Assembly: GCF_020745735.1 (NCBI RefSeq)
Contig: NC_083408.1
Span: forward strand, 93,216,484-93,280,483
Source of the DNA: Hemiscyllium ocellatum
Taxonomy: Eukaryota
Direction of reading: 5' to 3'
DNA length: 64,000 nucleotides
Positions 3,703 through 56,974 of the stretch are shown piece after piece. The notes under the pieces are model-generated. The model had not been told where the DNA came from, did no database searches, and worked only from the letters and a program-made list of their open reading frames with translations. The position numbers were made by a program, and so were the translations under genes. Each line of letters opens with the position of its first letter. The stretch's first letter is position 1.

Positions 3703-5113
3703 GTCTGAGGCACTCAGCAAACTACATTGAACTTGGAGGAAGTCTACACATCCCTAGAAGGAATTGCCCAGCTCCCTCCATGGACAGACTGTCTTGGAGA
3801 GTCTGATTCAGCATTTGTGGGATATGTCCATAGATCTGCACTCCGTTGCTCTAGCCATTTGTATTCAGCTCCAATGATTAGGTGAAATGAGGGACCTTTT
3901 CAGGTGAGTCTTCCTCTTAAGGAGAGGGTCATTTCAGTGGGCATTCATTGGAGGCGGAAACATATACAGGTTCCGCCTGGCGGTCTCCTCTCAGGACACA
4001 CTAGGATGCTCAGTCCCTTTACCTTCACCCTGCTTGCCATTCTCCACCCTGTGAATGATCAAACCCAAGAAGGTTGAACCTATATCTATGTAGGACACAC
4101 TCAGCATGTTCAGGCTCTCTAACAACAAATCCATCCAAACTCACCCACCCAAATCTCCAAAGCCAACAGGCCCCAATATCGCGAAGCTCCCTCCAGCTCA
4201 GATGCATCTCTAAACTGCACTTAGATATCATGAGAAGGAAAGGAAAAAGAAAAATAGCCTTATGGTGGTATACAGGTAGGATTGGCGACACCTCAATGTA
4301 CGTACACTATCATAGTTGTAATAGGTGTTTACTTTTCACCATTAGCCGGATAAGCAAATTTCATTTTATCCACAACTATATTGATGACAATACAGAGGTT
4401 GGTCATCCTTGAATTCCTCATCCAAGGAAAAGTCAGGCTGGACTCAAACCATCTGTGTTTCCCAACATTCTGAGTGTTTGTTTTGTTTTCACCTGTACTC
4501 TGTGGGTGTCTGTTTCATTCTACTACTGTTTGAGTGGCCTCAAATTGCACAAAAACAGAATCTCCATGTCTCAGGGAAGGGGGGAGGGGGAAATAATACT
4601 TACTCAACCCATTTCATGTATGATGATAGTTAGCCATTTTAGCTCCCATTGCACACTTTCAATTTCGTTGGAGATGGAATCTAACACAATCACATTTCAT
4701 AGAATGAGTTTCAGGGTCAGCCTTTCAACTTAGGTGACCCCAAACGTTTATGTTCCTTTCTTCTTTGCTGTCCCAGTCAATCCCAAAGGCATTGCTCTTC
4801 CCCGCATTCCCACTTGATCCATTTATTTGACGGCTCATCTCCATGCATTATCCCTGGAGTCCCAGGCATGCAGCTTAGTCACGACAAATATGATCAACGA
4901 TGTTGTCTCATTGAAGCCAGGGTGGAGGGTACTATAAATGACAAATCCTTGCTTCCCCTCATGTCCCCTGCCCCCATCAGGATGATAGCACCCCTTACTC
5001 TCCATGCTCTATCATCTCCCATTCTTATATGTTCAGTATACCCCCTTCACAATTATTACTCCCCTCCCACATCCCAGCATTTTGCTTCAAATCTTTACAA
5101 ATGATTTCCCGGT

Positions 5114-5983
5114 ATTATCCGCCGCCATTTCCGCCACCTCCAAACGGACCCCACCACCAAGGATATATTTCCCTCCCCTCCCCTATCAGCGTTCCGCAAG
5201 GACCACTCCCTTCGTGACTCCCTTGTCAGATCCACACCCCCCACCAACCCAACCTCCACCCCCGGCACCTTCCCCTGCAACCGCAGGAAATGTAAAACTT
5301 GCGCCCACACCTCCACACTCACTTCCCTCCAAGGCCCCAAGGGATCCTTCCATATCCGCCACAAGTTCACCTGTACCTCCACACACATCATCTATTGCAT
5401 CCGCTGCACCCGATGTGGCCTCCTCTATATTGGTGAGACAGGCCGCTTACTTGCGGAACGCTTCAGAGAACACCTCTGGGCCGCCCGAACCAACCAACCC
5501 AATCACCCCGTGGCTCAACACTTTAACTCCCCCTCCCACTCCACCGAGGACATGCAGGTCCTCGGACTCCTCCACCGGCAGAACACAACTACACGACGGC
5601 TGGAGGAGGAGCGCCTCATCTTCCGCCTGGGAACCCTCCAACCACAAGGTATGAATTCAGATTTCTCCAGCTTCCTCATTTCCCCTCCCCCCACCTTGTC
5701 TCAGTCGGTTCCCTCAACTCAGCACCGCCCTCCTAACCTGCAATCCTCTTCCTGACCTCTCCGCCCCCACCCCACTCCGGCCTATCACCCTCACCTTGAC
5801 CTCCTTCCACCTATCCCACCTCCATCGCCCCTCCCCCTAGTCCCTCCTCCCTACCTTTTATCTCAGCCTGCTTGGCTCTCTCTCTCTTATTCCTGATGAA
5901 GGGCTTATGCTCGAAACGTTGAATTCTCTATTCCTGAGATGCTGCCTAACCTGCTGTGCTTTGACCAGCAACACATTTGCAGC
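5114..5983 (+). mobile_element. 5'-truncated Penelope-like element (Neptune-type): intact Cys-rich linker and GIY-YIG frame, 3' end with hammerhead
   Basis: Stop-free frame 5114-5755: ...CNRRKCKTCAH...IIYCIRCTRCGLLYIGETGR..ERFREH...HFN..H...RLEEERLIFRLGTLQPQGMN. CpG-rich, so probably young. Imperfect TSD TGATTTCC at 5102 and 5984. Confidence 0.92.
5893..5920 (+). ncRNA. Minimal type I hammerhead ribozyme core (PLE family 1)
   Basis: CTGATGA-A-GGGC TTAT GCTC-GAAACGTT: CUGAnGA box, helix II, GAAA, palindromic ACGT in place of helix III, NUH site. Confidence 0.75.
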
Positions 5984-19816: not shown

Positions 19817-20037
19817 AAAAACCAAAAGAACTGCAGATGCCGCAAATCCGAAACAAAAACAGAAATTGCTGGAAAAGCTCAGCAGGTCTGGCAGCATCTG
19901 TGAAGAGAAATCAGAGTTAACATTTCAGAACTGAGGAAGGGTCACCAGACCTGAAACATTAACTCTGATTTTACTTCGCAGATGCTGCCAGACCTGCTGA
20001 ATCTTTCCAGCAATTTCCATTTTTGTTCTGGATTTAC
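19817..20037. mobile_element. Palindromic mini-PLE, family 2, with hammerhead core at 19931-19960
   Basis: Inverted arms (AGAAATTGCTGGAAAAGCTCAGCAGGTCTGGCAGCATCTG / CAGATGCTGCCAGACCTGCTGAATCTTTCCAGCAATTTC); core CTGAGGA-A-GGGTC ACCA GACCT-GAAACATT; flanks AATATCAAT / AATATTAAT. Confidence 0.85.
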
Positions 20038-25855: not shown

Positions 25856-26126
25856 GTTCTATTTTAATGTGAATTGATCCAGACTGTACCATGTTCTGCA
25901 TACACTCCAATTTTATCCTTTCAGGTTTTTCTTGTTCTCTCTTACATTGATACACAGAGACTCCACTTGTGAAACACAGCAAGGCATATGCACATTCTTC
26001 CTTTCTTCACATTCACATGCAAACGATTTTCATCTTCCATCATATATTTTCAGATATTATGGAGAAACTGTTTTTCTCCTCAAGGTTATGGCTTAATTGC
26101 AAATTTGGTACGTATTTTATCAAATT

Positions 26127-26352
26127 AAGAGTGTTGAGCTGGAAAAGCACAGCACGTCAGGCAGCATCCCAGGAGCTGGAGGATTGACTCTTCAGGCATA
26201 AGCCCTTCATCAGGAATGAGCTCATTCCTGATGAAGGGCTTATGTCTGAAATGTCGATTTCCCTGCTCCTCAGATGCTGTCTGACTGGCTGTGCTTTTCA
26301 AGCACCACACTCTCAACTCTGATCTCCAGCATCTGCAGTCTCTACTTTAGCC
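26127..26352. mobile_element. Palindromic mini-PLE, family 1, with two back-to-back hammerhead cores
   Basis: Perfect spacer-less 48-bp palindrome at 26197-26244 (CATAAGCCCTTCATCAGGAATGAG|CTCATTCCTGATGAAGGGCTTATG). TSD-like flanks TACGTATTTTATCAAAT / TATGTATTTTATTGAAT. Confidence 0.9.
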
Positions 26353-26842: not shown

Positions 26843-27522
26843 TGTGGAAGTAGTAAGGACTTAACATACTGCTGCATGATGGGATACTTGACCAAGGTAA
26901 AAGGTATTTTGGCTCTCAGACCCATAGCTTTAGTGGAAAAGTATTGTTAGAGATAAAGATTGAGATTGTGTAATTATAGTTTGACAAAATATGAGGGGTG
27001 TACCTTAAGCTCGTTAGAGGGAATGCTTCTCTAGCTCATTAGTTTCTCTGTCCTTGAGCAACATCAAAGAACAAAGGTGATAACTGCACAATGCATATCT
27101 TTATCTTGAATTATTGTCAAGTCAAATGTAAGTAAAGTTGTTTGTATCATTATATAAGCATAGGTGGGAATTGTTTTAACTCAGTTGGCTCTACTGTTGG
27201 TTTACAGAGCAGTGTAATACCAACAGTGTGGGTTCAAATCTCATCACTGATTTGAAGTTACATGAAGGACTCTCCTTCTCAACCTCATCCCTCGCCTGGG
27301 TTCTGGTGACCCTCAGATTAAATCACTACAAGTCACTTCTCTCCAACGAGAGAGCAGGCCCTATGGTCAGATAGGACTATGGCGACATAACAGGTATAGG
27401 CTGACTGTTCAGCTCGAGAGAGTGCTGTTAGACAGTGATGACTGTAGTAGTCTCTCTGTGAATTCATGAAAAATAAAGCTTCTTCAAACAAGACTCGAAA
27501 TCTCAGATTAAGTAATTTCCTC
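26843..27522 (+). mobile_element. Putative solo LTR in a CR1 3' UTR, itself carrying a tRNA-headed SINE (~27165-27390)
   Basis: Interrupts a CR1 3' UTR (26660-26842, resuming ~27523). Starts TGTGGAA, ends TTCCTCG; TATATAA at 27151 and AATAAA at ~27473. The inner SINE has a B-box GGTTCAAATC. Confidence 0.4.
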
Positions 27523-27629
27523 GATGGAATTGAATGATCAGAGGATTTTATTGAAAGTTAGGGTGGACTCAACGGGATGAATGGAGACGACTCCTGCTCC
27601 TGATTTATATGTATATTTATATGTTGTCC

Positions 27630-28190
27630 AGCAATTTCAGTTGCTTCATTAATGACCTGCCTTCCATCATAAAGTCAGAAATAGAGATGTATAGTGATGA
27701 TTACACAATGTTCAGCACTATTCATGCCTTGTCAGACGGCGAAACATCTCTAAGATGTAAGAGAATAAGTAGGCCATTCAGACTAGCAATTCCACTCCAC
27801 CTTTCAATAAGATCATGGCTGATCTGATCATTTTCAAGTCCATTTTTTTGTCTTTTCCCCATTAAGTCTTAATTCCCTTACTGATTTAAATACATCTATC
27901 TCAGCCTTTCATGTATATAATGGTGTCTGGTCTCGATAGCCATCAGCAGTAAATTCTTCCAAAAATTCATTATCTTCTGAGAGAAGAAATTCTTACCCAT
28001 TTCTATTGTAAATGAGAGACTACTTACTCTGAAATTATTCTCTCAGGTCTTAGACTCTCCCAAACAGGGTACAATTTCTCAATATCCATTCTGCTGTCCC
28101 CTAAGAATCTGGTATGTTTCAAGGAGGCCATCTCTCATTTTTGTATACAGTGCAGACCGAAGCTAATAAATCTCTCCTCATAAGAAAGCC
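27630..28190. mobile_element. LINE RT fragment (+, ~27630-27745) and CR1 3' fragment (-, ~27755-28190)
   Basis: ORF 27609: FSCFINDLPSIIKSEIEMYSDDYT (RT catalytic xDD region), followed by an antisense CR1 3' UTR. Confidence 0.8.
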
Positions 28191-29802
28191 CCATCTGAAG
28201 TCAACTCTATTTAGACAGCATAACCCCTTTCCAATATCTTTGTAATTTGAAAGGTAAAGTTTCAGCAAATGTTTGGCCATTTTAAGAACTTTGCTTAGGT
28301 CACCTACACATCGTGTAGTAGTCTTTTTGTAAATCCTATAGTTTCAGCTCATTCAATGTACTCATTTGTGATATAAAACATGTTTTTAATAACACAATAC
28401 TAGAAGAGAACTAGAGTGCCACACTCCCAAAGCAGGTAATTTGTTTCCACAAAGTCACATTGCATGAACTCCCCCAGGTAATAATGGTCAAAAAATGTAA
28501 TTCCCATTGTCCCTGAGCTTCAAGCAGCATTTAAGCTGGGGGAGTTTGAATACCACTGAGAAGGGACCTTTCCCTTCCCCATCATTGACTATTAATGGAT
28601 ATAAAATCTAGTCCACAATCCTGAGGCCATTATCAACATGTATTTGCATTTGAATCTGCTCGGATGTTGTTGGTTAAAGAACATTTTCAAAGCTGCTGTT
28701 GCATTTCCAAAAGCAAGTCATTCTTTTAACCCAGGGACTTTTTTATGATCTCTCTATTCACTGAGTAATTCAAATTCTATTGCCTTAATTTACCATCAAA
28801 GAATATTCTACAGACATAACCCCTAAAACAAGTCATTTTACTTTAAACACTTTTGTGACAGAAATAAACATTTTATTTTCACATTGTTAGAATTTTATTA
28901 AATTTATTATTCATGTATTAATTCATAAAACACCAGGATTAATATAAGAATATCCGGTCCACTGGAATGGTCCATCTTTTAGAATGACTTATTGGAGGAA
29001 ATATTGACTTTGCACTGTGATGTATGATTGCAAATCAACAGCCTGTGACATCCGTGTCAAGCAATAACCATGTTAAACAGAAAGAATTTCACCATCTCCC
29101 TTTGACATTTAATAGCATCATCATTTTTGAACTCCCGACAATCAACATCTTGTGACCAAAATCTAAATACTGACATGTCAAAGTTGTGACTGAAAGAATG
29201 GGCCAGAGGAGATGAATTCTGTGGCAAATGCCCACCTCCTGTCCCCTGAATACCTGATAGGAAACAGGTGTTGGAGGGGATGTTAGAATATTCTGTTTGT
29301 CATGCGAGCAGCTCAGCAGCATCAATGGCAAAACAGCCCACTGTTTGGCATTCCTTCCACCCTTTCAACACACACATCTTTCATCACTGATGTACAATGC
29401 AACAATGTGCACCATATACAAGATGCAGAGCTCCAATTCACCAAGGCTCCCTAAACAGCATCATAAGACCAGAATATCATAAGAGCAGGAATTCAGCCCA
29501 TTGAGTGTGTTCCAGTATTCAATGAGATCATGAATGATCTGATAATCCTCAACCCCATTTTTCTGCCTTTACCCCATCACCCTTGATTCTTTAACTGATC
29601 AAAAGTCTGTTTCAGCCCTGAATATGTTCAGTGAGCCTTCCTTAACAGCATTTTAGTAAATAATTCCACTGCCTCATTATCCTCTGAGAGAACAAAATCC
29701 TCCTTATATCTGTCTTTAATATATTTCCTCTAATTCTGAGGTTATGCCCTATGATCCTAAACTCTCCCAAAAGGGGAAACAATCTACATGCACCCATCCT
29801 GT

Positions 29803-30387
29803 TGAAGATGTAGATCCCAGGCGGGACCTCTCAGTTTCGACATCAGTCAAAAGAATCATCAGGAATACCGCCTGTTTAAAGCAAGGTTATCAGTTTAATA
29901 GAATTAGGCAGCCTGGCCCTGTTTTGTCCAGCAACACAGAGGTTAAAACTTCTGTGTTCTGTGGCGAAGTTGCACCAGGCTGCCTAATTTTATTAAACTG
30001 ATAACCTTGCTTTAAACAGACCCTGTACCTGATTATTCTTTTGACTGATCTCGAAACCAAGAGGTCCCACCTGGGATCTACATTTTCATATGGTACCGTG
30101 ACTTGTGGTTCGACACGGACAGATCGTGGACAGTGGTGTAAGAGCTTGAGTCCCTCGCTATTGAGTGTTGAGAAATTTGGCCAGCCAGACGTGGGTATTT
30201 TAAGTCCATTTGGCTTTTTTCGCATTCAAGTAGTGGCTGAATTGACCCCTTGCTGTCTATTGTCCTAGTCCAGCCCGAAAAGGATAAATCTTGGCAAGGG
30301 GCGAGGAAGAGAAAGAGAGAGAAAGGTCAAGGACTCTTACAAAGTTGAGAAAACTGAGAGGTTTCGTCTGGGACCTGCAGATCTTCG
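29803..30387 (+). mobile_element. 585-bp non-coding LTR/ERV-like mini-element: foldback TG..CA unit, tRNA-His-like PBS, purine tract, terminal repeat
   Basis: TSD CTGT at 29799-29802 and 30388-30391. Ends TGAAGA / TCTTCG. 114-bp inverted arms at 29803-29916 and 29975-30088 (12 mismatches, no indels). PBS-like at 30091; purine run 30303-30326; 30351-30387 complementary to the first ~35 nt. Confidence 0.75.
30091..30113 (+). promoter_or_regulatory. Primer-binding site complementary to the tRNA-His(GUG) 3' end
   Basis: TGGTACCGTGACTTG matches the canonical His PBS TGGTGCCGTGACTCG at 13/15 and lies 2 nt after the ...TTTTCA end. Complementarity extends to TTCGA allowing G-U pairs and one bulge. 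Confidence 0.7.
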
Positions 30388-32929
30388 CTGTATACAAAGA
30401 ATCTTGTATGTTTCAATATGGTTGCCCTACATACACATAACATACCCAGAAGAACAAAGGAGCAGATGACTGGCACGTATAAATTTCCCTCTAAAGCATG
30501 TGTCATCCTGGTTTGGAACAATATTACTGCTCCTTCACTGAAAGTGGTCAAAATTCTGGAATTCCCTTCTAACAGCATTGTAGGTGCACCTATTCTCCAA
30601 ACACTACAATGGTTTACTAAGGCTGCGTAGCATCATCATCTCCAGGTGAATTAGATATAGATAATAATGCTGGCCTAGTCAATGATGCCCATATTCTATC
30701 ACTGAACGAATAATAAATTTTTAAAAATTAGAAGTGGCACAGCTAAGGGCAGATGTGCTGTAAAGCCTGTGCTTAATTACCAGTTGGGGTAGGAATGAGC
30801 TGTTGTATGTGCAAGGACGTTTTAGCTGTGTATCGTGTGACATGTTGGGTTGTGACTGTTGTTCCACTACATTGATATTGAAGGCCAATTGCAGACTACC
30901 AATGTTTGAGCATGATGGGTGTGACAGCAACTGCAGATGTGGGCAGCATGCAGCCACTGCTCATGAGATGTTGGTGCTAAGTATCCATGGTGGAGGTCCA
31001 GAGCTGGAATTACTAAATACCTGAGCTGACTTTCAATTCTCAACACAAAGATTGCATTCAACAAGTGGGAGAATGGGAGCCTGCTTGTTCATGAGGTGAG
31101 ATTAAATAATCACGAGAGTCATAATACATGTCAACAGGCCTAGGACTTGCTTGGAAAGTGTGTCTTTTTGGTTTTGATGTTCAGAAAAGCTGCACTCGAT
31201 GCCTCACATAATTAGACCAAATTTCTTGCTGTAACCCACTTTGTTCAGGGTCCGAGAGGATTCTATCCTCTGTTCATGATGTGCAAACCAATAAATAGCT
31301 ATTTTTAATTTTCTCAAAAGAAATGTTTCATCAAAGTGGAATTGGGAGAAACATACAGAATCTTCAGGTGAACATCTTTTAGTAATCTGCTACTATAAAC
31401 TCTACTCCCACCATCCATACGCACCTATGCTTGCAAGATTAAATATAAGTAAGTACACTTGAAAGTCATTGTTTAAAAAGTGAGTGAAATGCAGAATGTA
31501 TCTGAAAACAAAACTGAGGCAACTTGCAGTATGAAACTGTACTGATATTCCTATAATACTTCAGAGCTAGCGAGCACTGAACTTCCAACAGATACCCTTT
31601 TCCCTTCATTCTGGCAATGATTGTAGTAGATCTTTATTGAAACTCCATAATCAGACAGGTCGACTTTCATGTGCTACTCTTCGGTTACCTTCTCAAATAA
31701 ATTTGTAAATTGGATCATCTGTCTCATGTCACTCCAGGTATTTATTAATACTTCAGTTTAATTATGTAACACTACATCTAATTCATGCTGTCTTCCTTAG
31801 CACTTTAGCATCATGCAAAAAAATCCAATAACTTTCCCTGCTCCACTAGGTTTCCTTCTAACGTACTCCAACTGTTCTTCTAATCTCCTTAACAATTCTG
31901 TTGATTTCTTCTTAATGGCCCCTAATTGTACTCCTAATCTTCACTGACAATGCTAAAGTTTCACTTCACTTTCCTAACCTCTTCTTATTTCCTCCCAATC
32001 TTCCAACACGTCAGTTAATTGCCCCAATACTCTCCCATACCTATTCTATTATTCTCATTAAATCTGCCAAAGTACTTCACCCTACTCTCTCGCTCTGACC
32101 GTAGTCAAGTATGAGTTGTTGTGAAATATATTCTATGGAAATTAGTTTATGATATAGTAACTATGGGTAATTTTAAACCGTGTCTCTCTCCAACTGATCT
32201 ATGTCATCCAGTGTAATAAGCTTCAATGATTACTGCCAAAATAACTGTGCCAACAGCAGCACTTGTCAATTTGTCATGCTTTTATGGGTAATAGATTGTT
32301 CTGCAAGAGGTCATAAAACACAACGCTTCAATGATAACAAATATAAACTTCACAAGCCTGGAATTGATTTTGTGCATTGTTAATAGATGACCCTTGTAAC
32401 AACTCTGTTAAAATACTGGATAGAGAAATCTCGGATGATGCACTGACATAGTAATATTGCAATGTCATTTCCAAGGTTCATCATCCTGGAAATTTGTTCA
32501 ACAGGTGACCCAGGATATTCCTCTAGGATGAGATAAAGAAGGCAGAGATATTACTAAAGCTGATGTCCTAATGGCGTAAGAGTACCACTGTGACATGTTT
32601 GATTGTTCCAGCCTTCTGCATGTTGTAATGTGGAAGCCTAACTTGAGGACTTTAAGGCCATGCACGAGTGTGTAAAGCAGTAGACATACTGGGCCTAGCT
32701 AATAGAAGAGTAAACACACAAAGGGTGGTATCAGAGCCACAGAAGAAGCTATTATTATGTCTGGGACTTGTCCTTAGGCAGTGAAGCCTCCAATGTAAAT
32801 GCTCCAGATGGAGCTCTCATGCTCGCCAGATCTTTTTCCTTTTTCTTTCTTTTTATTTTCCACTTGCTCCAGTTTTTATTTCACTGCCCCATGCCCCAGC
32901 TTCTCAATTTTTAAAGAACACTAGTTGGA

Positions 32930-33765
32930 GGGAATGGAGAATGGAGTCTGAGACGAGCCTTGAGTGGGAGACGAATTGCAGTCGGAGCGGGAGCAAAGTG
33001 AATGTAGGCCCAGTCCTGGAACTGAGATGTGGCTGGAGCCCGGAGCGGGAGCAGAGCAAGTGAGTGCCAAGTCTTGAAATTGAGTTGCAGCTGGAGCGAG
33101 GAGTTAGAGCAGTGCGAGAGTGCAGGCAGAATCCCAGAATAGACTTGCAGCTGGAGCGAGGAGTCGGAGCAGTGCGAGTGCAGGCAGAGTCCCGGAACTG
33201 ATTTGCAGCTGAAACCCAGAATGGGAACAAAGTAAGCATAGGCCTAGACCCGGAACTGAGTTGTGGTCAGAGCCCATAGCAGGAGCAGAGTGAGCTTGGA
33301 TCGAATTCCGGAATTAAGGTGCAGCTGCAACCCAAAGAAGGAACAGAGCGAGCATGGTCCTAGTCCCTCGTCCCGGAGCCTGGAGAGGGAGCAGAGAGAG
33401 CGTGGGCCAAGTCTTGGAATTGAGTTGCAACTGGAGCCAAGAGTAGGAGCAGAGTGAGCATGTGTCTAGTCCTGGAATTGAGTTGCAGTACATGGAGACT
33501 ACAAGGCCTTGTGTTCTGAAGTCAGGCGGCAATGACTTAGTGAAAAAGGACTATCACTTGACTACTTTAACAATAGTTTTTATTTGCATCCTGGACTTTT
33601 TAAACTCTTGTTTCCATGCTAGTCTATTTTTGTATTAACTTTTCCAATCCTGTAACAATGCATAAAGTGTCTGTGCCGAAGTACCCTGTACTGAAGATGG
33701 CACTGAGAGGCGACATTATCAACTTTTCACCACACTCATTCGAGTGAATGTGACAATAAAGGCTA
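32930..33765 (+). repeat. 58-bp minisatellite (~9-10 diverged units, to ~33490) ending in a Rex1/Babar-like 3' tail
   Basis: Unit e.g. GAGCGGGAGCAAAGTGAATGTAGGCCCAGTCCTGGAACTGAGATGTGGCTGGAGCCCG; tail AACTTTTCA...GAATGTGACAATAAA. Confidence 0.75.
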
Positions 33766-36700
33766 TTGTAGAATGGAACATTTCACTTTAAAGCACTGAT
33801 ACACTCTCCAAAGCAGCTCAGGATCTTTCTGCTTGGCAGGGACCCACTCTGAGGCTTGTAAAAGTTCCACAACTTTGTAATGTGTCTGGCAGTTAGTCAA
33901 CTGATTGCCTGTCTCCAATTGGCAGGTTAAAGTTTTTTGCCATTCTTACCATCTGCTATACCCCTTGGCAAAGGGAGCACTTCGCTCTTCTCTCCCACAC
34001 CTTGTGCCATTTATTTAGCACTTACCTACCCCTCTCCAAAGGGCTGTTAAAACTCAGTCCAATTTTGACTGTTTCTTTCTCCACAGATGTACCCAGACCC
34101 ACTGAATATTTCCAGCATTTTCTGCTTTTATTTTTGGAATCATACTGAAGGAATTTGGAGCCATTCTCCTTTTAGATAAATCTAAATAGAAGGTCTATTT
34201 TGTAAAAGAATGAGCTGAATGCAACAGTGGAGACAGAATTGAGGCATTCAAAATTGGATGATTGTTTGGATAACATTCAGGTGCAAGTGCATGGGGAAAA
34301 AAAAGTGGGAGATTTGCATTAGATAATGAGCCAGTATAGGCAAGAGGGACTGAATTCCCTCCTTCTGCACATGCAATTCTCTGATGTTGTATTTTCACAG
34401 TGGTTTGTGCATTGATTAAAATGACAAGGTAATTTTTGGAGAGCATTTCAATTTTCAAAGCAAAACCTACTGTCAGCTAAAAGTAATTTCCTTATCCACT
34501 AGTCTGCGTAGTTGTTGGTCAGATGATTACAATTAATGACAGTTATAATTTTGTGCTGAGTACTGCCAGTGTTTTATTAATCTAGCTACTGCTGTCATAA
34601 TGTTTACCTTACAAACATTATTACCCTGTTAACTTATGCTGATAGTCCTCTCACCCAGTTTAAAATTGTATTTTCTCCTTTTCAATTTGTGCCTCCCTTT
34701 ATCACAATGCTATTTCCCTTAAGTGTGGATGATGGAACATTCTGCATGTTGCAAACTTCAAACAGAAACACTTGGAAAGGTAAAGATTATACAATTGTTC
34801 ACCTGCGACACAATTGGTGCATATTTACATGACTGCCACCTGATTGATTGTGGGACTGATTCCATAATGCCAGAGATGATCGATGCTGGTAGAGACTGAA
34901 GACAGTCATGGGCTGAGATCCTTAATTTTCCATTCATTAATCATCCCTTACCTGTCCACAGCATATATCAAACTGAGGTAGTTCCTGGCATTCTACCTTA
35001 TTGACACAAATACAACAGATTGTGATCTGTGTCAACAATAATCCAAGACAGGGCACAATTTGTAGGATGTAGACACTATGTGGTCATTTGCATAACTGCA
35101 ATACGGGGCCATCATTTTAAGATCAAGTGCTCCATAGCTGTTCTGCCTGAGGTCTCCTGAGGCCCTCTGATCTTAGGAAGAGTGGAGCCGAAATTATTTC
35201 TAAGCTAGAGGATATTTGAAGGGGGAATTCTTGAGGTGGCTCTTGATGGAGAGAGATAGATTAGAAATTTCATTTCCCGGAATAAATTAACCTGTTGTCT
35301 AATTAATGAAAATTCCTGGTGGTGTGCTCAGATTCGTCACAAGTTCTGAACCTTTCCAGTTAGAAACAGGTCAGAGATACATCTACCTGTTGTAAGGATA
35401 GGATTCTCCAAGGTATTGTTGCAAGTAGGTAGGATTTTTTTCTTTACATCTTTGTTTCACATCAGCCTCATGACTTAGTTCACTATGACCATTTATGCTT
35501 TCATGATAGATGTGGAACCGTAGCACTGGGAAATGAGAGATAATATATACAAAAGATAACTAGAAAGTACATTACATCTTGCAGTCAGCCCCATTCTCTT
35601 GAGGATATAGAGTTAGACAGTATGGAAACAGACCATTCGGTCCAACTCATCCATGCCAATCAGACATGCCTATCTGACTTAGTCCCAGTTGCTAACATTT
35701 GGCTCATATTCCTCTAAACCTTTCCTATCCTTATACCCAAAATTTCAGGCATTTTGTCTTTATTCTTCAATAATCTGATGTAGCAAAGCCAAACCCAGAG
35801 CTAAATAAAGCTCCTCACTGACCCATTGCCAAGTAGCACCATTTCAGTTGTTCACAGAGAAATCTACCATCCCCCTACACAGTATAGGAATGAAATGTGG
35901 ACCTGCCAACTTCACTGTCCTCCCAAATTTAAAGTGTTGAAAAAATGATGCCCTGATTTTAGTGACTGGATTTGTACCTGTGGCAGAAGACACTGACTTG
36001 GCCAGAGTGGGAAGTGTGATACATGGAGAGACCTCCTCCCAGTGATAGCCAATTAATGTGCTGTCACCAAAGATGCCATCTCAAGTACAGCAACATACCT
36101 CCAAGTTACACTTCTTAGGGCCAGCCACTCAGTAGTGATTAGCCATTGGTGACCATTGTGATGGCTGTAGCTGAATGGACAGGAAACCTCAATGACCTAT
36201 GTATTCATAAACTGCTGCACGAGATTGGGGAATGCCTTGGACCAAGTGTTGTGTGGAGCATTTGGTTCTGAAAGGATTAGTGCTGAAGAGTATGATTTAG
36301 AAGGGTAGGGGTCAAGTGCAGGGAAACGAGGTTAGCGTGGGTGGACATTTTAGGTGGCATGGACCATATGGGCTAAAGGGCTTGTCTCTGTGTTGAAGGA
36401 ATCTATGACTCTAGGAGTACACTCAGATCCACCCAATATGACAGTTTCCTGAAGACTGAGTGGGGAGAACAGCTTTGGATCTTGAAGGAGAAAAGAACAA
36501 TCACCAAGGTTTCCATCGTTGTCTTAGCAACAATGATACTCGTACCAATGAAAGTTACATCTGATTGCTATCATACATTAACTACATCTTACTTAAGGCA
36601 AAAGCATCTTGCTGGATAATTCATTGATTTTGTCTGTCAGGCCAGACAAAACAGATTCTAACCTAAAAGGTGGAAAAAGTTAACAAATCTTTAACAAATA

Positions 36701-38013: not shown

Positions 38014-39359
38014 TCTGGCAGGAGGAGGCTTCAATCACTAGCATTGCCATTTGGTCTATGATTTTATCAATAAGCTATGAGGCTCCTTTGTGCTGATTGA
38101 GTTGACTGATAATATTTGTAGTATCAAACAGCGCTGAAATAGGTCCTTTGTGCCTGTGTTAACTCCTTGAGAGATTTTTAATTTGTCCCAAATCTGTCCC
38201 AAGTCTTTGCGCTGTTTTGTTTTTCATTTTCATATCCATTTACCTTTCATCCTCATTTTTTGGAGCTAGATTGAATTAAATGCAGCCCGTTCCAATTCGT
38301 GCCGTGTTTGTTTGACAGGGTCTGTCTTAGTTTCCTATAGGTGGCCAAAACCTCCTGCTGCTGTTAAGTCAAAGGTGGAAGGTGTCATCTTCTCAGATGC
38401 CATCAGTGCCAGTGTTGGTTACCCAGCACTGGTGGCTTGTGGTTTGCTAATTTATTGTCAATCATCCTTCTTATGCAAAATTATTACTTATCTAATTATC
38501 AGTTGTCAAATATCGGCCTCAATAAAGACTTAACAATAAGAAACACTTGTTTTACATAACAATGTGTAGGTCATTGCATGATAGAAATAGGTACAATTAA
38601 CAGGAATAAGTTAAGACATGATTTCAAATATGAGATGCCAGATATGTTTACCTATATCTGTTTAAGATACACAGTGCAACGCCATATGTTTTTGTGAAGC
38701 TAATGCACCTCTAGCCTTAAACTCTTTTAGAACTTTTCCCTGATATGATATCTCCCCAGACTTTTATCCCCATAATTAACAATTCTACATTCAACTACTT
38801 TATGTATCCACTTTTACAATGACCATGACCTCATCTCCTAAGTGTCTAACTTCGCAAATGTAGGTTGTATCAAAGTTGCACAATTTTTCAAGATCCTGTT
38901 CTTCTCTGACTTGGAAGATTGGTTTGTCTTGAGGACCTTGATTCTATTTCTCTGTAAATCATTTCTCTACTGGAGGATCTTTTCTCTCTTCTACGTACTT
39001 TGCAGAAGATGATGTGGAGGTGCGGGTGTTGGACTGTGATATTGTGTGATTTTTAACTTTGCAGAAGATGTCACTCCTATTGCTGAACTCAGTAGTCAGT
39101 CAATTACCTTATCTGGAGAACTGCTAATCTACCAGGTTTCCATTACAATTAACTCTTTGCTGGTAATGGAGGCAGCTGCCCCATAATACCATCCGGGGAC
39201 CTTAAATTTCAGGCATGCCCAGCGTGGAAAACAATTAGGAAGTATCTACTTTTTGACTGCACCTTGAATTTGGAGATGTTGCTCTGGCTTTGAGGGAGCC
39301 ATATGCAACTCATCCTCACTGAGTTCAAGCAACCCTACAATCATAATCTGCTGATAGAT

Positions 39360-40400
39360 CTGTGGGTGGAAATGTGCACAGTGTGGGTGCAGGTGTGCCC
39401 AGCACAGGTGCAAGTTTGCATAGCGTGGGTGTAAGTGTGCTCAGACTGGGTGGGAGCATGCCCAGCACAGGTGGAAGTGTACCCAGTGTAGATGGAAGTG
39501 TGCTCAGCACAAGTGGAACTGTGTACAATGTGGGTGAAAGTGTGCCCAGCACAGGTGGAAGTGTGCTCAGTGAGTGTGGAAGTGTGCCCAGTGTTTCTGT
39601 ATGTGTGTCCAGTGTGTGTGAAAGCATGCTGAGTGTGTCTGGATGCGTGCCCAGTACCAGTGGAGAGGGGGTGGGGGAGTGTGCTTAGCGCGGGTGAGAG
39701 CATGCCCAGTCCAGTTGGGAGCTTGCCCAGATAGGGGGGGTGAGAGTGCCCAGTGCAGGGTAAGCGTGCCCTGCCTGGATGGGAATGTGCCCAGTGTGGA
39801 TGGAACTGTGCCCAGTGTGGGTGGAAATGTGCTCAGCATAGGTGAAAGCATGACCAGCGTGGCTGGAAGTGTGCCTAATGCTGGAGGAAGTGTGTTCAGT
39901 GTGGGTAGAAGCGTGCTCAGACTGGGTGGGAGCATGCCCAGTATGGATGGCAGTTGGCTCAGCATGCATGAAAGAGTACCAGCACTGGTGGAAATGTGCC
40001 CAGTGTGGTTGGAAGTGTGCTCAGTGTGGGTGAAAGTGTGCCCACTGTGGGCAGAAGTGTGCAAGCAAGAGTGAGCCCTCATTGGGAAAGCCCAGCATGG
40101 AGTGTCTGCAGACTGAGGGCTTAGGAAAGGACTGTAACATTTAACTTTTAACTTTTCTTTCTTTATTTTTCTGCTTTATACTAAGAAGAACCTAGTGATG
40201 AATTTTTAAACTTAGTTCTTTATATTTGTACCTAACATTTTGTACCTTTGTATCTAAGATGGTATTGGGAGTGGAAATATTGTACATTACTCTCTTATAA
40301 CTTTACGCTTCCACTCATAAAATTGTGTTATAGTCAATAATGGTTCCTTACAGAACACTCCAGTGAACTTGAGTACACATGACAATAAAGTCTAAACTGA
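39360..40400 (+). repeat. 21-bp minisatellite (~30+ units, to ~40060) ending in a Rex1/Babar-like 3' tail
   Basis: Unit GTGTGCCCAGCACAGGTGGAA and variants; T-rich linker; TGTATCTAAGATGG...GAGTACACATGACAATAAA. Confidence 0.8.
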
Positions 40401-49825: not shown

Positions 49826-51591
49826 AGGTAAAAACAATGACTGCAGATGCTGGACCAGATTCTGGATTAGTGGTGCTGGAAGAGCACAGCAGCATCTGAG
49901 GAGCAGTAAAATCGACGTTTCGGGCAAAAGCCCTTCATCAGAAATAAAGGCAGAGAGCCTGAAGGGTGGAGAGATAAGCTAGAGAAGGGTGGAGGTGGGG
50001 GAGAAAGTAGCATAGAGTAAAATAGGTAACTGGGGGAGGGGACGAAGGTGATAGGTTAGGGAGGAGGGTGGAGTGGATAGGTGGAAAAGAAGATGGGCAG
50101 GTAGGACAAGTCATGGGGACAGTGCTGAGATGGAAGTTTGGAACTCGGGTGAGGTGAGGGAAGGGGAAATGAGGAAACTGTTGAAGTCCACATTGATGCC
50201 CTGGGGTTGAAGTGTTCTGAGGTGGAAGATGAGGCATTCTTCCTCCAGGCGTCTGGTGGTGATGGAGCAGCAGTGAAAGAGGCCCAGGATCTCCATGTCC
50301 TCGGCAGAGTGGGAGGGGGAGTTGAAATGTTGGGCCACAGGACAGTGTAGTTGATTGGTGCGGGTGTCCTGGAGATGTTCCCTAAAGCGCTCTGCTAGGA
50401 GGTGTCCAGTCCCCCCAATGTAGAGGAGACCACAGGAGCAACAAATACAATAAGTGATATTGGTGGATGTGAAGGTAAACTTTGATGGATGTGGAAGGCT
50501 CCTTTAGGACCTTGGATAGAGGTGAGGGAGGAGGTGTGGGCGCAGGTTTCGCAATTCCTGCAGTGGCAGTGGAAGGTGCCAGGATGGGAGAGTGGGTTGT
50601 ACGGGGGGCGTGGACCTGACCAGGTAGTCACGGAGGGAATGGTCTTTGCAGGAGGCAGAAAGGGGTGGGGAGGGAAATATATCCCTGGTGGTGGGGTCTC
50701 TTTGGAGGTGGCAGAAATGTCAGCAGATGATTTGGTTTATGCGAAGGTTGGTAAGGTGGAAGGTGAGCACCAGGGGCGTTCTGTCCTTGTTACGGTTGGA
50801 GGGGTGGGGTCTGAGGGTGGAGGTGCGGGATGTGGACGAGATGCGTTGGAAGGCATCTTTAACCACATGGGAAGGGAAATTGCGGTCTCTAAAGAAGGAG
50901 GCCATCTGGTGTGTTCTGTGGTGGAACTGGCCCTCCACTGGTCCTCCTGGGAGCAGATACAGTGGAGGCGGAAGAATTGGGAATACGGGATGGCATTTTT
51001 GCAAGAGGTGTAATCCAGGTAGCTGAACTGGTTGGGGAGACTGGATGCCTTCGCGCAGAGCGTTTTAGGAAACATCTCCGAGACACCTGCATCAATCAAC
51101 CACACCGCCCTGTGGCCCAACATTTCAACTCCCCCTCCCACTCTGCCGAGGACATGGAGGGCCTAGGCCTCCTTCACCGCCGCTCCCTCACCACCAGATG
51201 CCTGTAGGAAGTACGCCTCATCTTCTGCCTCGGAACACTTCAACCCCAGGGCATCAATGTGGACTTCAACAGCTTCCTCATTTCTCCTTCCCCCACCTCA
51301 CCCTAGTTCCAAACTTCCAACTCAGCACTGTCCCCATGACTTGTCCTACCTGCCTATCTTCTTTTCCACCTATCCACTCCACCCTCCTCCCTGACCTATT
51401 ACCTTCATCCCCTCCCCCAGTCACCTATTGTATTCTATTTCTCTCCACCCCCACCCTTCTCTAGCTTATCTCTCCACCCTTCAGGCTCTCTGCCTTTATT
51501 CCTGATGAAGGGCTTTTGCCCGAAACATCGATTTTACTGCTCCTCGGATGCTGCCTGAACTGCTGTGCTCTTCCAGCACCACTAATCGAGA
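49826..51591. mobile_element. Neptune-type PLE with 5' inversion (~550-bp inverted arms) inserted in a SINE B copy
   Basis: - strand copy 49826-~51020 and + strand copy ~51025-51591. 14-bp TSD AAGAGTCAACAACT at 49812-49825 and 51592-51605. Hammerhead cores near 49913-49940 (-) and 51503-51529 (+). Host SINE B (-) at 49735-49825 and 51592-51693. Confidence 0.93.
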
Positions 51592-54210: not shown

Positions 54211-54571
54211 GAAAAGAACCAAAATCATTTTCCTTTATGCCAGGTAAGACAGGTAAGGCAGAGTTTTACCCTGAATTCCCATTGACACGAGTTTTGTTTG
54301 AGTTCACTAATGTCACACATAGTTGAATGCATCTAAAGGGAATCGAGGAGAGATGATGTTGTAGTGGCATTGTTGCTGGATTAGTAAACTTAGACATTCA
54401 GAATCATGTGTTCTGGGTTGGAATCTCAGTACAGAAGATGGTGGAACTTAGAACAAAAAGGATTGGAACCAGAAGTCTAACAATGACCATGAAAACTCAT
54501 CTTCTTCACTAAGGCCCTTTAGGGAAAGAAAAGGGCCATCCTTACCTGGTCTGGCCTATATATGATTCTAG

Positions 54572-55633
54572 TTGTGGTTCTGCTCGCCGAGCTGGAAGTT
54601 TTTGCTGCAAACGTTTCGTTCCCTGGCTAGGGAACATCATCAGTGCTGTTGGAGCCTCGTGTGAAGCGCTGCTTTGATGTTTCTTCCGGTATTTATATTG
54701 GTTTGTTCTTGCTGCTTCCGGGTGTCAGTTTCAGCTGTAGTGATTTGTATGTGGGGTCCAGGTCGATGTGTCTGTTGATGGATGTTCTTGCCATTTCCGG
54801 GTGTCAGTTTCAGCTGTAGTGGTTTGTATATGGTGTCCAGGTCAATGTGTCTGTTGATGGAGTTTGGGGATGAATGCCATGCTTCTAGGAATTCTCTGGC
54901 TGTTCTCTGTCTGGCTTGTCCTATGATAGTGGTGTTTTCCCAATCAAATTCATGTTGCTGGTTGTCTGAGTGTATGGCTACTAGAGATAGCTGGTCGTGT
55001 CGTTTTGTGGCTAGCTGATGTTCATGGATGCGGATTGTTAGCTGTCTTCCTGTTTGTCCTATATAGTGTTTTGTGCAGTCCTTGCATGGTATTTTGTAAA
55101 CTACGTTAGTTTGGCTCATGCTGGGTATTGGGTCCTTTGTTCTAGTGAGTTGTTGTCTGAGCGTGGATGTTGGCTTGTGTGCTGAGTAGCCATACACTCA
55201 GACAACCAGCAACATGAATTTGACTGGGAAAACACCACTATCATAGGACAAGCCAGACAGAGAACAGCCAGAGAATCCCTAGAAGCATGGCATTCATCCC
55301 CAAACTCCATCAACAGACACATTGACCTGGACACCATATACAAACCACTACAGCTGAAACTGACACCCGGAAACGGCAAGAACATCCATCAACAGACATA
55401 TCGACCTGGACCCCACATACAAATCACTGCAGCTGAAACTGACACCCGGAAGCGGCAAGAACAAACCAATATAAATACCGGAAGAAACATCAAAGCAGCG
55501 CTTCACACGAGGCTCCAACAGCACTGATGATGTTCCCTAGCCAGGGAACGAAACGTTTGCAGCAAAAACTTCCAGCTCGGCGAGCAGAACCACAACAACG
55601 GATACCCGAGCTACAAATCTTCAATCAGATTTT
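54572..55633. mobile_element. Young Penelope/Poseidon-type PLE with ~410-bp near-identical inverted arms, inserted in SINE B (54348-55710)
   Basis: ORF 54640-55197 (-): VVYKIPCKDCTKHYIGQTGR..RIHEH...REFLEAWHS (GIY-YIG). Arms 54572-54982 and 55185-55596. 13-bp TSD TATATGATTCTAG at 54559-54571 and 55634-55646. Confidence 0.95.
55524..55557 (+). ncRNA. Minimal hammerhead ribozyme core (PLE family 4); mirror copy on - at 54610-54643
   Basis: CTGATGA-T-GTTCCC TAGCCA GGGAAC-GAAACGTT: perfect 6-bp helix II and palindromic ACGT. Confidence 0.8.
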
Positions 55634-55714
55634 TATATGATTCTAGACCCACAGCAATGTGGTGGACATTCAATTGCCCTCTGAAATAGCCAAACATGCC
55701 ATTCAGCTATATCA

Positions 55715-56765: not shown

Positions 56766-56974
56766 GGTGAAAGTGAGGACTGTAGATGCTGGAGATCAGA
56801 GTCAGGACTAGAGTGGTGGTGGAAAAGTACAGCAGGTCAGGCTGCATCCGAGGAGCAGGATAATTGATGTTTCGGGCAAAAGCTATTCATCAGGAATGAC
56901 CTGATGAAGGCCTTTTGCCCGGCACATCAATTTTCCTGCTCCTTGGATGCAGCCTGACCTGCTGTGCTTTTCCA
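56766..56974. mobile_element. Palindromic mini-PLE, family 1
   Basis: Centre TTCATCAGG-AATGA-CCTGATGAA; TSD TTTTCTATTTTCAA / TTTCCTATTTTCAA. Confidence 0.88.

Follow-up and report, generated by a model that had tools for sequence, protein, structure and literature searches.

The hairpin at positions 29803-30088 of the window, the 64,000-nt stretch of the Hemiscyllium ocellatum genome analysed here, is very probably the fossil of an aberrant reverse transcription event in a class I-like retrovirus: strong-stop DNA that primed its own extension and was subsequently integrated. This reading starts from what can be followed in the sequence itself, namely the topology of the element, its breakpoints, its att ends, its target-site duplications and its repeated origin in the same genome.

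Anatomy of the element

The arms at 29803-29916 and 29975-30088 pair over 114 bp with 12 mismatches, five of them clustered at 29864-29871, and zero indels. The 58-nt loop contains an inner hairpin at 29933-29958. TTTAAA occurs at 29875 and 30011, and ATTAAA at 29992 on the plus strand has its mirror image at 29894 on the minus strand: both strands of the hairpin carry a poly(A) signal. The predicted RNA fold of 29780-30120 reaches −208.8 kcal/mol, compared to −82.3 ± 4.9 for shuffled sequences (z −25.7; 0/100 shuffles equal it). The recount and the fold thus bear out the hairpin as described in an earlier note made from the letters alone, with its arms, mismatches, loop, inner hairpin and motifs on both strands. 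The arms stand as claimed; the biological junction, however, lies at 29975/29976, and the element extends to 30387. Its parts are as follows.

29799..29802, plus strand: left copy of the target-site duplication, CTGT, repeated at 30388..30391; the host repeat, in its other copies, lacks 611-615 nt at the element's place
29803..29975, minus strand: inverted R-U5 of 173 nt, corresponding to minus strong-stop DNA read on the plus strand; reverse alignment to the last ~170 nt of ordinary LTRs
29916..29975, minus strand: copy of a 60-nt TAR-like hairpin from the 5' end of R, the putative self-priming site; found in 31/31 ordinary R-U5
29976..30088, plus strand: putative self-primed arm of 113 nt, with distal R (ATTAAA at 29992-29997) and U5 up to its CA end; 6/6 junctions
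30091..30108, plus strand: primer-binding site (PBS) for tRNA-His(GTG), behind a TA spacer; complementarity to tRNA-His
30109..30351, plus strand: 5' leader of the endogenous retrovirus (ERV); 79-80% identity to the leaders of ordinary copies L031 and L033, ending exactly at 30351
30352..30387, plus strand: last 36 nt of a second U5 (3' LTR end); 28/35 against the U5 end of L031
30388..30391, plus strand: right copy of the target-site duplication, CTGT, paired with 29799..29802

The inverted R-U5 starts at the U5 att end (TG) and stops at the putative cap nucleotide. The loop with its inner hairpin is part of the R-hairpin copy; it aligns to ordinary LTRs in reverse only, antisense to the right arm and the PBS. 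The right arm begins at the first base past the R hairpin, as it does in all six fold-back copies described below. U3 and the TATA box are missing. The second U5 end differs from the two arms at 6/34 and 10/34 positions, and the interior between the leader and this second U5 end is deleted.

Sequencing runs from four other samples of the same organism contain 94-98% of the words; one run shows 0 differences over 29524-29954, 29993-30272 and 30256-30900, 29955-29992 being bridged by none of its listed pieces. An assembly artefact as the source of the hairpin is ruled out by these reads. In two other organisms, contigs cross the flank-to-arm junction (29524-29959 and 29524-29899) and the leader-to-right-flank junction (30223-30585 and 30223-30523), spanning in addition the junction left by the internal deletion. 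They differ from the window by ~5-7% (24/436, 22/363, 21/301). Paralogs swamp the aligned contigs, and with them any covariation of the orthologous arms. As both junctions are spanned, the insertion and the internal deletion predate the split of these organisms. An Rfam scan of 27000-34000 gave no match over the element, and its one sub-threshold hit is distant from it.

The retroviral family and its ordinary copies

A search of the element's own genome listed 926 candidates, and the 40 that were scored yielded 82 matches. Most family copies have a single arm preceded by ~420 nt of shared upstream sequence, which makes an ordinary LTR of ~590 nt. Two direct TG..CA LTRs, 4.8-8.9 kb apart with a decayed interior between them, were found in 7 of the 17 longer (9.9-kb) stretches; the window copy itself is without two direct LTRs, its 5' LTR being rearranged. 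The palindrome is not the LTR of the family: ordinary copies have direct LTRs of ~590 nt, and fold-backs number 6 against 196 ordinary junctions.

Remnants of reverse transcriptase (RT), RNase H and integrase domains occur in the interiors of the family. A natural ORF of copy L043 matches RVT_1 (E 3e-20), and the best PDB matches of the family RT are MLV RT (E 3e-24), foamy virus (2e-15) and HIV-2 (2e-8). The family is a decayed class I-like ERV, with an RT closest to the gamma/epsilon type by its PDB matches. Among the target duplications of seven ordinary copies examined, two are clean 4-bp repeats, one agrees at 3/4 positions, one is 5 bp long and three are unreadable.

In ordinary LTRs, TATAAA is placed 31 nt upstream of the breakpoint G in 12/31 rows (five of these 12 being near-duplicates of a sixth), and a looser pattern in 20/31. 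A spacing of 31 nt is the usual distance from TATA to transcription start. A poly(A) signal follows ~75 nt downstream of the same G. With the breakpoint at this spacing and the poly(A) signal beyond it, the inverted piece is R-U5, equivalent to minus strong-stop DNA on the plus strand; the cap site is inferred here from the TATA spacing and the breakpoint.

A 16-mer of the PBS from a family copy has 136 matches in the genome. ARAGORN, run on eight of these loci, called five tRNA-His, one tRNA-Ser and two without a tRNA gene. This upholds the suggestion that a PBS with a tRNA-His primer adjoins the hairpin. Priming by tRNA-His is known from fish epsilonretroviruses. Counting the CCA end, the PBS of the window agrees with tRNA-His at 13 of the first 15 letters and at 13/18 overall. 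Its positions 16-18 carry the family version and not that of the tRNA, as in most ordinary copies, so that the copying of the tRNA has left no direct trace. Most PBSs of the family match tRNA-His over ~15 nt, break at 16-18 and then resume (30091-30112 in the window); L023 and L028 retain the tRNA version at 16-18. This mix suggests that the primer corrects the PBS only in part.

Several further variants were seen in the family. A tandem duplication of ~90 nt in U3 (LTR ~275-367) is carried by L021, L022, L127, L130, L131, L132, L138 and others. In L126 (C1:7396500-7400500), 1.4 kb of interior is inverted against a partial LTR and followed by a tandem second R-U5; this is another rearranged form, not a cap-site fold-back. 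Finally, C14 at 90.0-92.5 Mb and small contigs hold a segmental amplification of a single decayed provirus, whose near-identical copies (L008, L009, L011, L012, L014-L017, L029 and L030) have the same flanks; several of them have an inverted LTR piece ~0.6-0.9 kb upstream.

Six fold-back copies share both breakpoints

A search pattern for the junction matched 4 places in the genome. A second pattern matched 40, of which 6 carry the fold-back junction and 34 the ordinary one (30 retrieved). The pattern for the ordinary junction has 196 matches, compared to 0 in the control, and includes at least two inner arms of fold-backs. Fold-back copies thus amount to ~3 per 100 LTR copies, both counts being lower bounds.

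Both breakpoints are identical in 6/6 fold-backs: the first G of R, and the first base past the R hairpin. Five of the six have perfect 4-bp target duplications (CTGT, AAGG, CCTC, AGAT, CAGG); the sixth agrees at 3/4 positions. The copies on C2, C55 and C113 are solo palindromes, flanked by AAGG, CCTC and AGAT, respectively. The C182 copy is a solo palindrome interrupted by a 1-kb insertion, with TAGT and TATT at its flanks. The C3 copy, with CAGG duplicated, consists of an inverted arm, a shortened R-U5, pol fragments and a 3' LTR, and is devoid of U5 end, PBS and gag. Its loop is in sense orientation, flipped relative to the interior; the check for a flipped loop proposed in the earlier note is therefore positive. 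Interior sequence and a second U5 end within the duplication are found in the window and C3 copies, and none of the six keeps the whole interior.

Two small relics have a U5 att at both ends and no middle: one of 97 nt with an ACAA duplication, the other of 169 nt with a 3/4 duplication. A permissive pattern with two U5 ends facing each other matched 5 places compared to 4 in the control, three of the five being family members and two without a family match. Searching the DNA again with the C2 palindrome as query gave 723 candidates; the 40 that were scored contain no additional full hairpin. Candidates on C1, C57 and C185 proved on inspection not to be fold-backs.

Separate origins and decay of the arms

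We built a tree from 58 rows and 114 columns, with 20 ordinary LTRs added; the C182 row was trimmed, five near-identical C14 rows were dropped and the partial C3 row was left out. The fold-back arms are distributed over three variant groups of LTR, interspersed with ordinary copies, and forcing the 12 fold-back rows into one clade is rejected (p-AU 0.0002). By this phylogeny, the six fold-backs represent several separate origins.

The two arms of the window copy are sisters in the tree (support 98/91). In C113 (22/115 differences) and C182 (22/85) the arms are not placed as sisters; the sister grouping, tested at p-AU 0.40 and 0.395, is not rejected. The arms of C55 come from different variants (25/112; p-AU 0.004, for a pair picked after seeing the data). 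This chimerism could reflect a route with two templates or later gene conversion, and the distal part is twice as variable across the family (0.281 vs 0.135); gene conversion among LTRs is the topic of PMC4921805.

At 12/113 differences, the window arms diverge like ordinary 5'/3' LTR pairs (14/113, 17/113, 14/115 and 21/109), and this stem is not kept better than neutral (12/113 compared to 14-21 in ~113). Arm mismatches tolerated as G.U pairs number three on the plus strand and four on the minus strand, with no strand bias. Taken with the empty Rfam scan over the element, the stem does not qualify as a selected structured RNA (miRNA or endo-siRNA hairpin). The 8-nt mismatch patch is mildly unusual (p=0.015 by simulation, for a patch picked post hoc); as a conserved feature it was rejected, being absent from the other five fold-back copies and private to the window copy.

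A model of self-primed strong-stop DNA

We propose that minus strong-stop DNA was primed by tRNA-His and copied up to the cap, a step whose topology is seen in the element and whose end point depends on the placement of the cap site. The strand would then not have jumped to the 3' R: its 3' end would have paired with the opposite foot of the R hairpin and primed an extension that copied distal R-U5 and the primer site, by analogy with the self-priming of HIV-1 at cTAR. The snap-back strand may then have acted like plus-strand strong-stop DNA, jumping via the PBS onto the minus strand of another template; strand displacement would open the hairpin and give a linear DNA with U5 att at both ends. 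Integrase would have inserted this product with the 4-bp duplication observed. Later, the window and C3 copies probably lost their interior by deletion, the four solo palindromes may stem from recombination between the distal R-U5 repeats, and the arms would have decayed neutrally, to the divergence observed today.

Part of this course can be compared to predicted DNA folds. In C2, C55 and L068 the pairing includes the very last base of the strong-stop 3' end; in L008 it is partial, and in L036 and the more mutated window copy it is absent (3/6 paired overall). In C2 the terminal 5 nt pair in a register that gives the observed next bases (z −2.7); the 3' end of the window copy itself no longer folds in register (z −1.1). 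The first bases of the right arm are the template bases that come next after the paired 3' end. Importantly, a loop antisense to the right arm and the PBS is predicted by the snap-back of strong-stop DNA and not by a fold-back from the leader side.

The sense loop of C3 is not given by a simple snap-back and counts against the model; C3 would need either an inversion between its identical arms or a nick by integrase at the hairpin-capped end. PBS positions 16-18, which keep no imprint of the tRNA, and the incomplete interior of every copy also count against it. Sequence comparison places the cause of the event in the 60-nt hairpin at the start of R in ordinary copies, with the 114-bp stem as its result. 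The snap-back envisaged in the earlier note is thus retained insofar as strong-stop DNA folded back and was copied toward the PBS; its long stem turns out to be the product and not the cause.

Alternative explanations

The hairpin might instead have arisen in host DNA: at the R hairpin of an ordinary 5' LTR already in place, a replication fork or a break could have left an inverted duplication that took over from U3. Inverted repeats abound in this genome (the window alone has 157 pairs, and several lie in loci of the family), the R hairpin would be a natural switch point, and the loop orientation of C3 fits arrival from the internal side. However, every copy has its new end precisely at the U5 att, and the duplication there matches the far end of the element (5/6 perfect). 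A rearrangement after integration would not recreate these duplications, which largely refutes the idea; moreover, the loop of the window copy is opposite to that expected from a fork on the leader side. We consider such an origin very improbable. We give equally little credence to a lineage with functional palindromic LTRs that primes by snap-back and dispenses with the first strand transfer, or to a MITE-like unit using the integrase of the family. The four solo palindromes do resemble mobile units, in that each ends in TG...CA and has a duplication of its own, one junction is common to all and one loop is flipped. Yet the copies do not form one clade (p-AU 0.0002) and are spread over three LTR variant groups, they number only ~3 per 100 LTR copies, U3 and TATA are absent, the arms diverge as ordinary LTR pairs do, and the mismatch patch is private. 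Without U3 and TATA, and with arms decayed like those of ordinary pairs, the element shows nothing of a working palindromic LTR; in all likelihood it is inert, and no function is indicated. Later co-option of the hairpin as a source of double-stranded or small RNA, or as a two-way terminator, would agree with its very stable predicted fold, the poly(A) signal on both strands and an insertion kept in three organisms. It is nonetheless highly unlikely, given arms that decay at the neutral LTR rate, G.U-tolerated changes split three to four between the strands, orthologous contigs that are ~5-7% different and an element without promoter.

Somewhat less remote, though still unlikely, is a variant that keeps the origin by self-priming and has the solo and flipped copies form directly, with no full provirus stage. 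The hairpin DNA would be re-primed at the copied PBS, or integrase would nick its capped end at the internal U5 att, and repair would open it. Such a course would account for solos in 4/6 copies despite a recombining repeat of only ~115-175 nt and for the two tiny relics with U5 att at both ends (97 and 169 nt); nick-and-repair, besides, gives exactly the orientation of C3. The window and C3 copies nevertheless hold interior sequence inside the duplication, and C55 needs two templates or later conversion. For C3 a flip between identical arms is a simpler account, and cutting by integrase at an internal or long-overhang att is an assumption. We keep to self-primed strong-stop DNA that would have passed through a provirus with two U5 ends.

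Relation to known systems and implications

The family shares with class I ERVs and their solo LTRs the MLV-like RT, the RNase H and integrase remnants, TG..CA LTRs of ~590 nt, a tRNA PBS and a mostly 4-bp duplication. Contrary to these, its fold-back copies have an inverted R-U5 in place of the 5' U3, U5 at both ends and palindromic solo forms. Snap-back retroviral DNA was studied in papers from before 2000. We found no report of integrated self-primed strong-stop products in the literature searched, where older subscription work is mostly outside coverage. DIRS1 with its inverted terminal repeats, the self-priming Tf1 and chromoviruses, parvoviruses with hairpin flip-flop, and MITEs all have inverted termini, hairpin priming or loop inversion in common with the element. 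In these systems they are heritable strategies of a lineage; the window element would be a recurrent by-product of a tRNA-primed retrovirus. Chromovirus hairpin priming is mentioned in the available part of PMC3601003, together with the anatomy of LTR motifs.

The closest parallel is HIV-1. As described in the part of PMC6088434 at hand, its minus strong-stop DNA self-primes at cTAR in vitro, yielding dead-end products that are suppressed by NC; the same part states that self-primed products were not detected in endogenous reactions. PMC4668388, in the portion available, describes abundant abortive products in vitro, one of them primed in U5. As in our model, the 3' end of HIV-1 strong-stop DNA folds onto the copied 5' R hairpin, from where it is extended back over R-U5. 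Unlike the HIV-1 products made in vitro, the element described here has a PBS, a leader and a second U5 end, was integrated with a duplication and has been inherited. The accessible part of PMC13185573 holds nothing further on the integration of such products. A fish ERV with an inverted LTR end, guppy PrERV-1, is said to have a whole inverted 5' LTR, of unclear origin (PMC5210030); the available part of that report describes neither a cap-site junction nor a fold-back arm.

Self-priming is a standard argument for the need of chaperoning by nucleocapsid and, in the reviewed material accessible to us, is treated as a dead end in vitro. The copies reported here indicate germline infections in which it would have happened, been completed and led to integration, repeatedly. 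Their integrase would accept two U5 ends, the transcription start of a dead virus would be marked in its DNA alone, and LTR elements would have a route by which to seed long perfect hairpins in genomes. It is possible, and we put it forward tentatively, that self-primed strong-stop DNA is a general but overlooked exit from reverse transcription in vivo, leading to integration-competent DNA with two U5 ends and accounting for a few percent of germline insertions. Just as tentatively, it may act there as a plus-strand primer, or integrase may resolve the hairpin end. If so, ERV and LTR families in which R opens with a closed hairpin are expected to contain U5-R-U5 palindromes, which should also turn up among defective HIV-1 proviruses; each palindrome would fix the cap site of an extinct virus at single-base resolution. 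Any genome or proviral set can be screened for them by a precise signature: a U5 att, an inverted R-U5 broken off at the cap, an arm that starts after the hairpin and a 4-bp duplication.

Other repeats in the window

A young insertion at 54571-55637, which we presume to be Penelope-like, has inverted arms of 412 nt that are 99% alike and an 11-bp flanking duplication. It is 97-99% identical to an insertion within ERV copy L045, and its ORF has no Pfam hit. A repeat related to it, at 4703-5755 and 49889-51591, has inverted arms that are nested (407 nt, 90%) and carries a GIY-YIG domain (E 1e-4); we class both segments as Penelope-like remains. Short head-to-head hairpins of two common SINE-like repeats are found at 19844-20035, 26125-26316 and 56820-56974. 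Tandem arrays with units of 21 nt and ~58 nt occupy 39357-40066 and 32984-33488, respectively.
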